A stretch of DNA of 64,000 nucleotides, taken from assembly GCF_013122565.1 (NCBI RefSeq), contig NZ_CP053258.1. One strand, 5' to 3'. Positions within the stretch are counted from its first letter, which is position 1. Each line of letters begins with the position of its first letter. The position numbers and the translations under genes were made by a program. Origin of the DNA: Escherichia coli. Lineage in GTDB: Bacteria > Pseudomonadota > Gammaproteobacteria > Enterobacterales > Enterobacteriaceae. Positions 16,390-27,380 of the stretch are shown here, piece after piece. A model generated the notes under the pieces. That model did no database searches. It was given only the letters and a program-made list of their open reading frames with translations, and was not told the DNA's origin.

Positions 16390-16688
16390 CAGAAGCGATC
16401 CTCTTATGAGATGTAGGGTGACATGGCGATGCTCATTTCGTAGCCATAATCTAAAAATATCTACATTTCTGAAAAATGCGCACAAAAGCGACATATTGTT
16501 TTCTTATTGTGATCAAAGACAACAAGTTAGTAACATTTAGCGTAGGGTATTAAGGCAAAGTGAGACAGGAAATGAATAACTAAAGCAACAGGTTAGGGGG
16601 GAATTACCATCAGAGAACAGATTATCTGGTCGATAAAAAACGGTAAATGGCTTCACTGCAAAATGACCGTTAGTAAACTAAACATATT

Positions 16689-16714
16689 ATCTGCCCCGTT
16701 TTAGCGGGGCAGAT
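16689..16714 (-). terminator. Stem-loop immediately downstream of ygaQ stop
   Basis: atctgccccg / cggggcagat perfect 10-bp inverted repeat with 6-nt loop, followed on the minus strand by an A/U-rich tract. Confidence 0.5.
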
Positions 16715-16725
16715 ATAACATTAAA

Positions 16726-18978
16726 TTACAAATAGAGATAGTTCGGCGGTTCTCCTGTTTTCCCTAAAAGAAGAGCGCTACGCCCAGGAATATTGATATT
16801 TAGAGTTCCGCCTCTAAGCATAAATTCTTTACCAGGGGGGATAATTTTTCGGGTATTATTAATAATAATGTTAACGCTATTACTCCCCATGTTTTTATAT
16901 TTTCCAGGTTGCAATTTGTTAGGCCAGGCACCTTCAACTTCTTCGTTTCCTTTATTTATTATAACTAGTCCATCATGAGGAGAGTGATTAATGTTCACAG
17001 AATCCCCACGACTAAAGGCCAGAACGTTTTTAGTTGCAAATACACCCTCAAATGCGCTCCATATTCCTGCTTTATCTATATATAATGCGTGGAATTCATT
17101 GTAGAGCTGCTGATAGGTAGAGCAACCTTTATTAAGCCACGCCTCACCGCCGACACGCGTCGACCCATCATAATTTTTAATTTCAGTCGTTGATTTTAAT
17201 ACTTGGCCATCCCAGTAAACTAAAGGCCTGCTGAACGGGAGAGCGGCCATATATGCCATTGCTAATTGTTCATCTTGTTGATGGTTAAATAGAAAGTCAT
17301 TGAAAAGATTGCCATTGTTAGGAAAATCGTGGTTAATGTTAATCAATATCCGTCTTTTTGATGGGATGCTTGAGATTGTGGAACCCGGTTTTGATGCAAG
17401 GGTTTGGAGATCGCCACCAAATGAAAAAGCTTTTATCGTCTTCATGAGCAATGAAAAATCAATGGCGCTTAAATCATCTCTTTCATAAAGCAGCGATGAC
17501 ATTTGTTCTTCATCCAACTGACAAGTTACCAGATATTCCATGTAATTCATAACGGCTTTTTCATGATATTTTGGGTTAAATAAGTTAGTATTGTGTAATC
17601 GCTCATTATAATTTTTAAGCGGTGGGGTTATTGATCTTTCTATTTGTTCATGTTTTGAGTGTTTTGCTGCATCGTAACGTAAACCTCGTACGCCATATTT
17701 TCGCATTTCACGAACGTATTGATTTTGCAGCATAATAACCTGGTCACTTTTGGGGGTTGTTTTAGGCATTCCATTTAAACGCTTTTCTTTTAATGCATGG
17801 AGGTTTTCCCATTCATCCTTAGAAATATTATCTTTACTTGCTTCGAAGTCTTTTGCAGTGAGATGTATATCTTCTGGATGGATTTGTTTACGTTCTTTTG
17901 TTACTGGATCTATAGTAAATGGAATCAAAACCTGACCTTGCCAATAGCCAGGGATACCACTTTCTATATCTTTACTGATCTTCGCTCGTATATCAGCAGA
18001 GGGATAATCCAGGTCATTTTTACCACTCCCCCCGATTCCCATAAAGTTAAAGGTATAATCAGGAATGATATCGATACCAAATTTTTTAGCATCTTTAACC
18101 AATGCGATAAAATCCTGCAAATCTCCCATTGGATTATGGATGGTACAAAGATCTTCGGGTTGATAAGCATGAAACCAGTAACCTTTTTCTTCTTCGGGAG
18201 TTTCTGGTCCGTCGGCGCGGAAAGTTGTCACTGGAGGGATTTGTATATACCCATAATGGCAACGTGCAAACTCAGACATATTTTCCCTGATTTGCTGGTA
18301 GGTGGCATTAAAAGCATGAAGAATCGCTTCGCCAGGTTTTTTGGGGGTGATGATTTCACATTGTGATTTCTGAACAGCAGTAAGAGATTTACGCTCAAGT
18401 GTTTGCCGTAGATGTTCTGGATTGATTAATATTTTAAATGTTTCTTGCTGTCCGGAAGGTGACGTCACGTTAATATTATATACATCGGCTGCCAGCTCAT
18501 AGTCAGGAATGTTAATAGCATATGCAACATACTTATCTTTTGGGGACGGTTTGTCAGATATAATGTGAGTGAAATGTTCAGCTGGACCATACTGATGAAC
18601 ACCGCTGTTATCACCTCTTTCAACCATTGTATCTCGTTGATAAACCCATGTTTTCCCTTCTCCTATCCTGTCTGGTGCTGTAATGCTACGCTGTGCAGCT
18701 TTATTCAGCTCTCGGTAAGTTGTATCTGGAGAAAGGGAAATTTTATAATCGTTTTTTAACAGATCATTAATGACTTTTTCTGCGTGAAAAGTTGATATAA
18801 TTTCTCTGTCTTTTAAATCCTGAGGATAAACTCCACAAGCATTAATAATATTTGTTACACAGTTTAGATATTCTAATGTATTTAATTTGGAATTTAGATC
18901 CCCGTCAGTAATGTTCCATGATAACAATGAGGGGTTGTCGATAGGTAAATTTCTTGGTCCTGGTTTTATAGAAAACAT
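16726..18978 (-). CDS. ygaQ: GH13 (alpha-amylase family)-like protein YgaQ, intact 750-aa form
   Basis: 750-aa ORF, visibly AT-rich; contains GH13-like conserved regions (GIDIIPDYTFNF; VRGLRYDAAKH resembling GFRxDAAKH; ININHDFP resembling FxxNHD). Confidence 0.8.
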   Translation of the reverse strand: MFSIKPGPRNLPIDNPSLLSWNITDGDLNSKLNTLEYLNCVTNIINACGVYPQDLKDREIISTFHAEKVINDLLKNDYKISLSPDTTYRELNKAAQRSITAPDRIGEGKTWVYQRDTMVERGDNSGVHQYGPAEHFTHIISDKPSPKDKYVAYAINIPDYELAADVYNINVTSPSGQQETFKILINPEHLRQTLERKSLTAVQKSQCEIITPKKPGEAILHAFNATYQQIRENMSEFARCHYGYIQIPPVTTFRADGPETPEEEKGYWFHAYQPEDLCTIHNPMGDLQDFIALVKDAKKFGIDIIPDYTFNFMGIGGSGKNDLDYPSADIRAKISKDIESGIPGYWQGQVLIPFTIDPVTKERKQIHPEDIHLTAKDFEASKDNISKDEWENLHALKEKRLNGMPKTTPKSDQVIMLQNQYVREMRKYGVRGLRYDAAKHSKHEQIERSITPPLKNYNERLHNTNLFNPKYHEKAVMNYMEYLVTCQLDEEQMSSLLYERDDLSAIDFSLLMKTIKAFSFGGDLQTLASKPGSTISSIPSKRRILININHDFPNNGNLFNDFLFNHQQDEQLAMAYMAALPFSRPLVYWDGQVLKSTTEIKNYDGSTRVGGEAWLNKGCSTYQQLYNEFHALYIDKAGIWSAFEGVFATKNVLAFSRGDSVNINHSPHDGLVIINKGNEEVEGAWPNKLQPGKYKNMGSNSVNIIINNTRKIIPPGKEFMLRGGTLNINIPGRSALLLGKTGEPPNYLYL

Positions 18979-27220: not shown

Positions 27221-27232
27221 CCATCAACGAAA

Positions 27233-27255
27233 AAGCCCACATCTGTGGGCTTTCA
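27233..27255 (+). terminator. Putative intrinsic terminator after ypjA
   Basis: aaaaagcccacatctgtgggctttc: GC stem gcccac/gtgggc followed by a short T tract. Confidence 0.45.
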
Positions 27256-27380
27256 TGTTACCAGGAGCCGCGGCTCCTTTGCGTATCCTTTTTTGTCTCC
27301 TCACCGTCTGGTCGGTGTCCTGCTGAGACTGCTAACTTCCTGTTTTTGTTGGTGTTGTCCTTACACCGTCCAATCATGAT

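Follow-up and report, generated by a model that had tools for sequence, protein, structure and literature searches.

The interval between glaH (csiD) and ssrA, the gene for transfer-messenger RNA (tmRNA), is a variable region of the Escherichia coli chromosome, and its genes, the insertion hotspot at ssrA and the fact that some strains have lost ileY were all already known from annotations and the literature. In strains W and B, ileY was lost through deletions mediated by insertion sequences (ISs), and insertion at ssrA is likewise documented (PMC3032704). For K-12, H-NS sites have been recorded in both spacers beside ileY (PMC3946193). Hha was shown to bind at ypjC and in the vicinity of ileY, its sites being far less numerous when hns is mutated (PMC2408971), and YpjA has been described as a biofilm-associated autotransporter (PMC9289746). 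The locus was analysed here in a 64,000-nucleotide stretch of E. coli DNA (contig NZ_CP053258.1 of assembly GCF_013122565.1), referred to below as the window, in which an earlier note, made from the sequence alone, had described an old, eroded, AT-rich island around a tRNA-Ile2 gene. The whole region aligns to annotated E. coli genomes, with glaH, ygaQ, tRNA-Ile, ypjCB, an incomplete recombinase gene, ypjA/EhaD and ssrA as its constituents, and represents the glaH-ssrA variable region in a prophage-free form in which all three large genes are intact. It is very probably a compositionally foreign islet with a fixed position in this known variable region, made up of modules with differing histories.

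The counterpart of the islet in K-12 MG1655 (b2647-b4462, ypjA-pinH-ypjB-ypjC-ileY-ygaQ) has identical genes, order and flanks, and exhibits 96-97.5% DNA identity to the window over most of its length, the most diverged features being ypjCB (93.4%) and ileY (94.7%). In contrast to the window, K-12 carries CP4-57 and the psaA border repeat (a copy of the ssrA 3' end) between ypjA and ssrA, the prophage having been pointed out in the earlier note; in the window, ypjA ends 160 nt from ssrA, and the same uninterrupted ypjA-ssrA junction was found in 1,384 (25.5%) of 5,426 complete E. coli genomes (a segment being counted, here and below, if at least 80% of it was present in one place). Furthermore, ygaQ is intact in the window and a pseudogene in K-12 (with an internal stop in a K-12-like record), and ypjCB, also intact in the window, is split in K-12 by an internal stop into ypjC and ypjB. 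The ypjA gene is annotated as intact in MG1655 and is frameshifted in the K-12 derivative BM28. Because ygaQ, ypjCB and, in BM28, ypjA are disrupted in this lineage, the term 'eroded' suits K-12 better than the window strain. Of the description as an old, eroded island, the age is retained, given the counterpart in Escherichia albertii described below, and the erosion does not extend beyond the IS3 and pin scars, as ygaQ, ypjCB and ypjA are all full-length.

The limits of the islet were defined by alignment to the islet-free E. coli strain Rb-3, in which glaH and ssrA are separated by only ~680 bp. Homology between the window and this empty site is lost at 16588/16589 and regained at 27229/27230, corresponding to an accessory islet of 10.6 kb (16589-27229), within ~150 nt of the limits of 16500 and 27380 that had been estimated previously. 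Its core flanks are glaH on the left (15412-16389, minus strand) and ssrA on the right (27381-27743, minus strand), and no direct repeats bordering it were found. In Rb-3, the site is filled by 333 bp of AT-rich sequence (38.7% GC; positions 4589-4921 of locus L003), comparison of which with the window, E. albertii and the other variants of the locus revealed no similarity. This filler was considered as a candidate ancestral sequence and set aside, as it resembles none of these; being unrelated to the islet, it does not allow the ancestral status of the empty state to be inferred. The 151 nt of core spacer between the ypjA side and the 3' end of ssrA (27230-27380) are also present in the empty site and are intact in the window, which shows that the ssrA attachment site holds no insertion here.

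Remnants of mobile elements are located between ypjCB and ypjA. A fragment of an IS3-family transposase gene (~21984-22070, plus strand; NF033516, E=0.006; 91.8% DNA match to an annotated transposase gene) is followed by a fragment of a Pin/Hin-type serine recombinase gene (~22074-22242, plus strand), which RefSeq annotates as an incomplete recombinase and which is called pinH in MG1655. The pinH fragment matches positions 55-103 of the 145 positions of Pfam Resolvase (E=1e-6), represents only the middle of the catalytic domain, lacks the N-terminal part and is bounded by stops and the IS3 fragment. It displays 75.5% amino acid identity to the DNA invertases of the P2-like phages Fels-2 and SEN8, in agreement with the decayed Pin-like invertase of the earlier note, and is presumably a non-functional relic of the serine recombinase family. 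Pfam and NCBIfam scans of the islet's open reading frames (ORFs) and other frames revealed no similarity to integrases, comparison of the ORFs with PHROGs yielded no structural family and only families of unknown function (essentially YpjCB and YpjA themselves), and comparison with PADLOC yielded no defence family. Family scans and repeat searches thus bore out the earlier note, which had seen neither an integrase nor phage structural genes nor a repeated tRNA 3' end, and the tmRNA 3' end is not repeated either. The islet is not mobile now and occupies a fixed chromosomal position.

The resemblance of the pinH fragment to invertase genes of P2-like phages such as Fels-2 would be compatible with an alternative origin, according to which the islet is the far end of an ancient prophage or CP4-like element integrated at ssrA, with ypjA, pin and perhaps ypjCB as leftover cargo. 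Proven insertions at ssrA in E. coli (PMC3032704) also favour such an origin, as does the fact that YpjCB and YpjA have been swept into prophage predictions, as reflected by their PHROG families. However, the core spacer common to the empty site lies between ypjA and the ssrA 3' end, this 3' end is present only once in the window, with no recurrence at up to three mismatches, and the copy seen in K-12 (psaA) marks the border of CP4-57 outside ypjA. Together with the lack of phage structural genes and the fact that the left part of the islet is also found beside glaH in E. albertii, these observations render derivation from an ssrA-integrated element very unlikely.

Base composition and codon usage distinguish parts of the islet from its surroundings and from one another. 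In 1-kb windows, the GC content is 0.52-0.60 to the left of 16 kb, 0.33-0.40 at 16.5-22 kb and 0.45-0.53 over the large ORF. The AT-richness assigned by eye to the entire interval consequently applies to positions 16589-22510 (37.2% GC, versus 50.9% in the remainder of the window), and not to the ypjA half (22.6-27.2 kb), which at 49.3% GC is not markedly AT-rich. With 27 core genes from the same window as the reference, ygaQ and ypjCB were shown to be extreme compositional outliers: their GC contents at third codon positions (GC3) are 0.30 and 0.31, compared with 0.572 +/- 0.060 in core genes, AUA codons occur at 24 and 18 per 1000 codons, compared with 3.3 (maximum 11.7), and their core-referenced adaptation indices are 0.57 and 0.59, compared with 0.70 +/- 0.045. 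The ypjA gene has a GC3 of 0.48, within ~1.5 standard deviations of the core, and its AUA usage (12.4 per 1000) and adaptation index (0.62) lie at the edge of the core range. The composition of the islet is thus not core-like, and its content varies across E. coli genomes, so that neither of the two outcomes named in the earlier note as grounds for refutation was observed.

The glaH-proximal part of the islet has a counterpart in E. albertii with the same order, in which glaH (98% amino acid identity) is accompanied by an intact YgaQ ortholog (60% amino acid identity; positions 7166-9409 of locus L007, corresponding to 16726-18978 of the window) and a tRNA gene with a CAU anticodon. Core homology between E. 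albertii and the window ends at ~16538, near the left boundary of the islet, and unrelated AT-rich ORFs lie beyond the CAU tRNA gene; within the 6.2 kb available from this species, neither YpjA nor, by BLASTP or tblastn, YpjCB was found. Synonymous divergence between the two species is saturated in ygaQ (proportion of synonymous differences 0.70), compared with synonymous distances (dS) of 0.27 for glaH and 0.18 for gabD. The two species thus hold deeply diverged ygaQ alleles in a single slot, indicative of an old locus without simple vertical descent: with core dS values of only 0.18-0.27, a single ancient insertion followed by vertical descent would be insufficient to account for the saturation observed.

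These data also bear on the possibility that the islet is an ancestral Escherichia segment which was never acquired, that its AT-richness reflects mutation bias and relaxed selection, and that islet-free strains (e.g. ST131-type) are secondary deletions. The presence of the ygaQ-tRNA pair at the same glaH-side position in E. albertii would be expected in that case, and many partial states of the locus are clearly deletions. The GC3 of 0.30, compared with 0.57 in core genes, is difficult to reconcile with such an ancestry, as are the saturated divergence of ygaQ relative to the flanking core (dS ~0.2), the IS and recombinase scars, and the unrelated filler that takes the place of a clean deletion joint at the empty site. 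In addition, YpjCB has no outside relatives, and those of YgaQ are limited to E. albertii and one metagenomic sequence. An ancestral, never-acquired segment is therefore considered unlikely, and a compositionally foreign islet with modules of different history remains the favoured interpretation.

The tRNA-Ile2 gene within the islet (19538-19613, plus strand; anticodon CAU) was identified by ARAGORN, matches the Rfam tRNA family with 73.7 bits, adopts a cloverleaf fold and occupies the position of the curated ileY. Its product is predicted to read AUA after lysidine modification of C34, and the sequence contains the acceptor pairs C4-G69 and C5-G68, which we take to be TilS determinants. Compared with the K-12 allele (94.7% identity), four substitutions are present (G28A, C42U, U43C and U44C), of which G28A and C42U constitute a double compensatory change of the anticodon-stem pair 28-42, and U43C converts a G.U into a G-C pair; among other ileY alleles and E. 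albertii, the acceptor pair 6-67 covaries as C-G, U-A or U.G. The allele of the window is a minority allele, with exact copies in ~260 records. With 93-95% identity between strains, ileY is more diverged than most of the islet. In the CAU tRNA gene of E. albertii, C was observed at position 54 instead of the usual T-loop U54.

The Rb-3 empty site is devoid of tRNA genes between glaH and ssrA. Among the 5,426 complete genomes, only 2,793 have an ileY that could be detected by megablast with a 28-nt word, which fails to bridge the allele of the window to ileX, so that ileY alone was counted. Because islet-free genomes lack ileY, the tRNA gene is cargo of the islet and not its insertion target, contrary to the premise on which a search for repeats of the tRNA 3' end had been suggested. 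A classical tRNA-targeted island, in which a P4-type integrase would have inserted into a resident ileY and the integrase gene and attachment (att) repeats would since have decayed, is nevertheless suggested by some features of the locus, which is AT-rich, tRNA-adjacent and adhesin-bearing like pathogenicity islands; a distant YgaQ relative on a metagenomic contig (L010) moreover lies 4.7 kb from an att-like 3' fragment of a tRNA-Ile2-like gene. Against this, in addition to the distribution of ileY, no second match to its 3' 25 nt was found at up to three mismatches anywhere in the window, and words of at least 12 nt from the tRNA or tmRNA 3' end do not recur within 10-35 kb. Furthermore, islet DNA lies to either side of the tRNA gene, DNA conserved in E. 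albertii runs ~320 bp beyond its 3' end, the frame after the tRNA gene is not integrase-like, and in three inspected variants an integrase gene is located at ssrA and never at ileY. The tRNA-targeted island is thus largely refuted, and we regard it as highly improbable.

Two candidates next to ileY were rejected. The open frame at 19616-19846 (77 codons, 'LDGGLYFTI...WFRMR') was considered as the N-terminus or arm-binding domain of a P4 integrase; no Pfam or NCBIfam match was obtained even at E<=10, and BLASTP against an ssrA-type IntA gave E=4.7. The inverted repeat I1 (19148-19173 with 20288-20313, 81% complementary) was considered as the two termini of a mobile unit enclosing ileY and is probably due to chance, because homology to E. 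albertii stops at ~19935 and the second arm is missing there.

Presence of the islet segments among the 5,426 complete genomes declines towards ssrA: the ygaQ segment was found in 3,366 genomes (62%), the ileY-ypjCB segment in 2,859 (53%) and the ypjA segment in 2,440 (45%), and the AT-rich part is missing in about a third of the genomes. In the four variant loci that were inspected, ISs of the IS1 or IS3 type occur at the edges of deletions or replacements within the islet, and three of the four carry an integrase gene, in each case abutting ssrA. The aggregate counts and these four variants suggest that erosion of the islet is driven from the ssrA insertion site.

The favoured interpretation accordingly distinguishes modules with separate histories. 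An old AT-rich core, comprising ygaQ, ileY and a conserved non-coding block and also present beside glaH in E. albertii, would have been joined by the orphan gene ypjCB, by the now dead IS3 and Pin-invertase scars and by the adhesin gene ypjA/EhaD with its near-core GC content, the order of acquisition being conjectural. Integrase-bearing elements such as CP4-57 would insert at the tmRNA 3' end, and IS1/IS3-mediated deletions would then extend from the ssrA side into the islet, producing the gradient of retention. The AT-rich spacers are described in the literature as bound by H-NS and Hha, so that silencing of the genes in laboratory conditions is probable and may extend to this strain. The AUA codon predicted to be decoded by ileY is used four to seven times more by islet genes than by core genes, which may point to a functional link.

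Several considerations weigh against parts of this model. Gain of the islet cannot be polarised against its loss, given the unrelated filler in the empty site, and the saturation of ygaQ would imply either that the allele was replaced or that one slot was filled by separate acquisitions. The match between codon usage and tRNA is a correlation only, the deletion-from-ssrA scheme is based on four inspected variants and aggregate counts, and the evidence for H-NS/Hha binding comes from K-12 and BL21, which are other strains than the present one. The features named in the earlier note (ygaQ, tRNA-Ile2, a 444-amino-acid ORF, an invertase fragment and an autotransporter) were all recovered at or near the positions it had assigned, and the present analysis sharpens its picture with respect to ileY as cargo, the probable erosion of the islet from the ssrA side and a conserved unannotated block beside ileY. 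One of the two AUA-tRNA genes of E. coli is accordingly accessory cargo of an AUA-rich, AT-rich islet that is H-NS/Hha-bound in K-12, and its detection in approximately half of the complete genomes is relevant to differences in rare-codon translation among strains.

The conserved non-coding block downstream of ileY (19705-19935) is single-copy and unannotated. Positions 19711-19935 display 86% identity to E. albertii, compared with 68% for ygaQ DNA, and within the inner ~70 nt (~19800-19870) a single base, located in a hairpin loop, differs between the two species; the 100 nt directly after the tRNA gene do not align to E. albertii. The block was found in 3,094 E. coli genomes, in all cases with at least 95% identity and in 1,893 with at least 99%, compared with only 90-95% identity in most genomes for the 2.7 kb around it. 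At the nucleotide level, it is therefore far more conserved than its surroundings. No Rfam match to the block was obtained, the MG1655 annotation contains no feature at this position, and a literature search for a small RNA (sRNA) adjoining ileY found none.

Both strands of the block contain potential RNA signals. On the plus strand, a long hairpin (19705-19805) has a predicted fold energy of -36.6 kcal/mol (z=-3.8), compared with -23.8 kcal/mol for the minus strand; in a comparison limited to two distinct sequences, 22 of its 32 pairs are invariant, eight carry one-side changes that preserve pairing, two are broken and none shows a double change. On the minus strand, a promoter-like site with 10 of 12 matches (19910->19883) lies ahead of a terminator-like hairpin of canonical form (19827->19806) with a T6 run. 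In E. albertii, the -10 element of this site is degenerate, and in the K-12 allele a C.A mismatch interrupts the terminator stem. A mini-ORF on the minus strand (19879->19853; ATG ATA ATA CTC TGG CTT TAT CGT TAA, MIILWLYR), which adjoins the AUA-tRNA gene and lies ~25 nt upstream of the terminator hairpin, was observed to contain two tandem AUA codons; its E. albertii counterpart is of equal length with changed middle codons (MIMLRLYR), and the arrangement could be incidental.

It is possible, although doubtful, that the block is a functional RNA or regulatory element linked to the rare-codon tRNA of the islet. It may be a structured RNA processed from the 3' trailer of ileY, or an ~80-nt sRNA or attenuator on the opposite strand, with read-through antisense to ileY towards ygaQ. 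If real, such a function would account for near-invariance of the block in a setting where the adjacent protein gene and even the tRNA gene diverge. Regulatory RNAs derived from tRNA 3' trailers are known, for example the 3' external transcribed spacer (3'ETS) of leuZ. The block resembles RNAs of the 3'ETS type in being a conserved sequence with predicted structure on the tRNA strand, ~90-190 nt past the mature 3' end, and differs from them in that the plus strand has no canonical terminator. It is the sole element of the locus that possibly merits follow-up.

The ygaQ gene (16726-18978, minus strand) is intact and encodes a 750-amino-acid protein. Matches to Pfam Alpha-amylase (E=4e-4) and Alpha-amylase_C (E=2e-5) are weak, and RefSeq labels the product at this position as 'alpha amylase C-terminal domain-containing protein'; amylases in PDB are matched with E ~1e-7 over part of the catalytic domain, and no family match was found for an N-terminal extension of ~215 amino acids. 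The motifs GLRYDAAKH and INHD are retained, and DYTFNF, assigned by eye, is presumably GH13 region I without its usual His. YgaQ may thus be regarded as a remote relative of the GH13 alpha-amylase family. A terminator-like hairpin with an 11-bp stem, including seven G-C pairs, is located directly downstream of the gene (16688-16715, minus strand). In the spacer between ygaQ and ileY, a patch of 98 nt (19146-19243) was observed to be 84% identical to E. albertii, which exceeds the identity of the coding DNA of ygaQ; the patch may act as a promoter or in the regulation of either gene.

Outside Escherichia, the sole YgaQ relative is an 824-amino-acid protein (35% identity) encoded on the human gut metagenome contig L010 (4916-7390), where it is surrounded by genes of the pathogenicity-island type, encoding InvH, leucine-rich-repeat (LRR), FidL/MarT-like regulator, EAL and invasin-type adhesin proteins. 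The tRNA-Ile2-like 3' fragment on this contig (116-166) matches the 3' part of ileY with 85% identity and looks like an island att remnant, which hints at a past association of the ygaQ lineage with tRNA-Ile2-associated islands. A tRNA-Gln gene called by ARAGORN on the same contig was dropped, as it has no Rfam support.

Ratios of nonsynonymous to synonymous substitution (dN/dS) were calculated against AB66, the closest complete genome. The values of 0.17 for ygaQ and 0.15 for ypjA indicate that both genes are maintained under purifying selection, core genes having values of 0.02-0.07. For ypjCB, dN/dS amounts to 0.67, and amino acid identity to the closest genome is just 85%.

The ypjCB gene (20370-21704, plus strand) encodes an intact protein of 444 amino acids, which matches NF050179 with 928.6 bits and Pfam DUF5507 and DUF5508; at E<=10, Pfam yielded nothing besides these two domains. 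The earlier note had described this gene as an orphan pentapeptide-repeat ORF. Its orphan status was confirmed against 1.84 billion cluster representatives, among which the only hits were a single relative of full length (82% identity) and fragments belonging to this family, and a sequence search of PDB revealed no relative; by sequence similarity, YpjCB is thus a true orphan. The pentapeptide assignment did not hold, as no such Pfam match was obtained and the best period-5 hydrophobic run (residues ~339-378; seven of eight positions) was reached by 370 of 2,000 shuffled sequences and is not significant. An AlphaFold2 model, based on a shallow alignment of 11 sequences, was unusable (mean pLDDT 36.4). 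Amid the fast evolution of the protein, residues ~315-400 were seen to form a nearly invariant C-terminal block.

The right-hand gene, ypjA/EhaD (22640-27220, plus strand), encodes a type Va autotransporter adhesin of 1,526 amino acids, named YpjA/EhaD in the RefSeq ortholog. The large autotransporter proposed previously is corroborated by a C-terminal beta-barrel (TIGR01414, E=2.7e-99, residues 1126-1569 of the long ORF) and by Ag43 and AIDA-I repeat matches in the passenger; an N-terminal hydrophobic segment, taken as the signal sequence, ends in ...PPGMA. Like AIDA-I/Ag43-type autotransporters, YpjA has a barrel translocator at its C-terminus and a long passenger with repeats, and it reportedly contributes to biofilm formation. 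Because its NCBIfam scores of 344 (Ag43) and 259 (AIDA-I) bits are far below the equivalog cut-offs of 1,200, it is considered to be a separate member of the family. Ahead of its annotated start, the frame of ypjA is open for another 43 codons, beginning with a GTG (22511-22639), and a small ORF upstream of ypjA (22457-22576) appears, judged by its position, to be the 39-amino-acid 'hypothetical protein' of RefSeq.

The two core flanks of the islet differ in their relationship to other strains. For the right flank (28-38 kb), the best match among the 5,426 complete genomes has 99.0% identity; the left flank (1-15 kb, nrdEF to the gab operon) reaches at most 97.6% identity to any of them, and glaH just 95.1% to the genome that is closest elsewhere. 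On the gab side of the islet, the chromosome seems to be divergent or recombinant.

Elements that integrate at ssrA (CP4-57, WpLE1 in strain W, and islands in CH4784, Cn5 and MIN14) occupy the neighbouring site and are a source of the variability of the region; they possess a tyrosine integrase gene abutting ssrA and a duplicated ssrA 3' end, neither of which is present in the window. From the tRNA-associated islands of Enterobacteriaceae (leuX, pheV and selC), the islet of the window differs in lacking an integrase gene and flanking repeats, and in having a tRNA gene that is part of the variable segment and missing from the empty site. It nevertheless resembles these islands in its low GC content, tRNA adjacency, adhesin gene, IS and recombinase debris, variable presence and H-NS binding.

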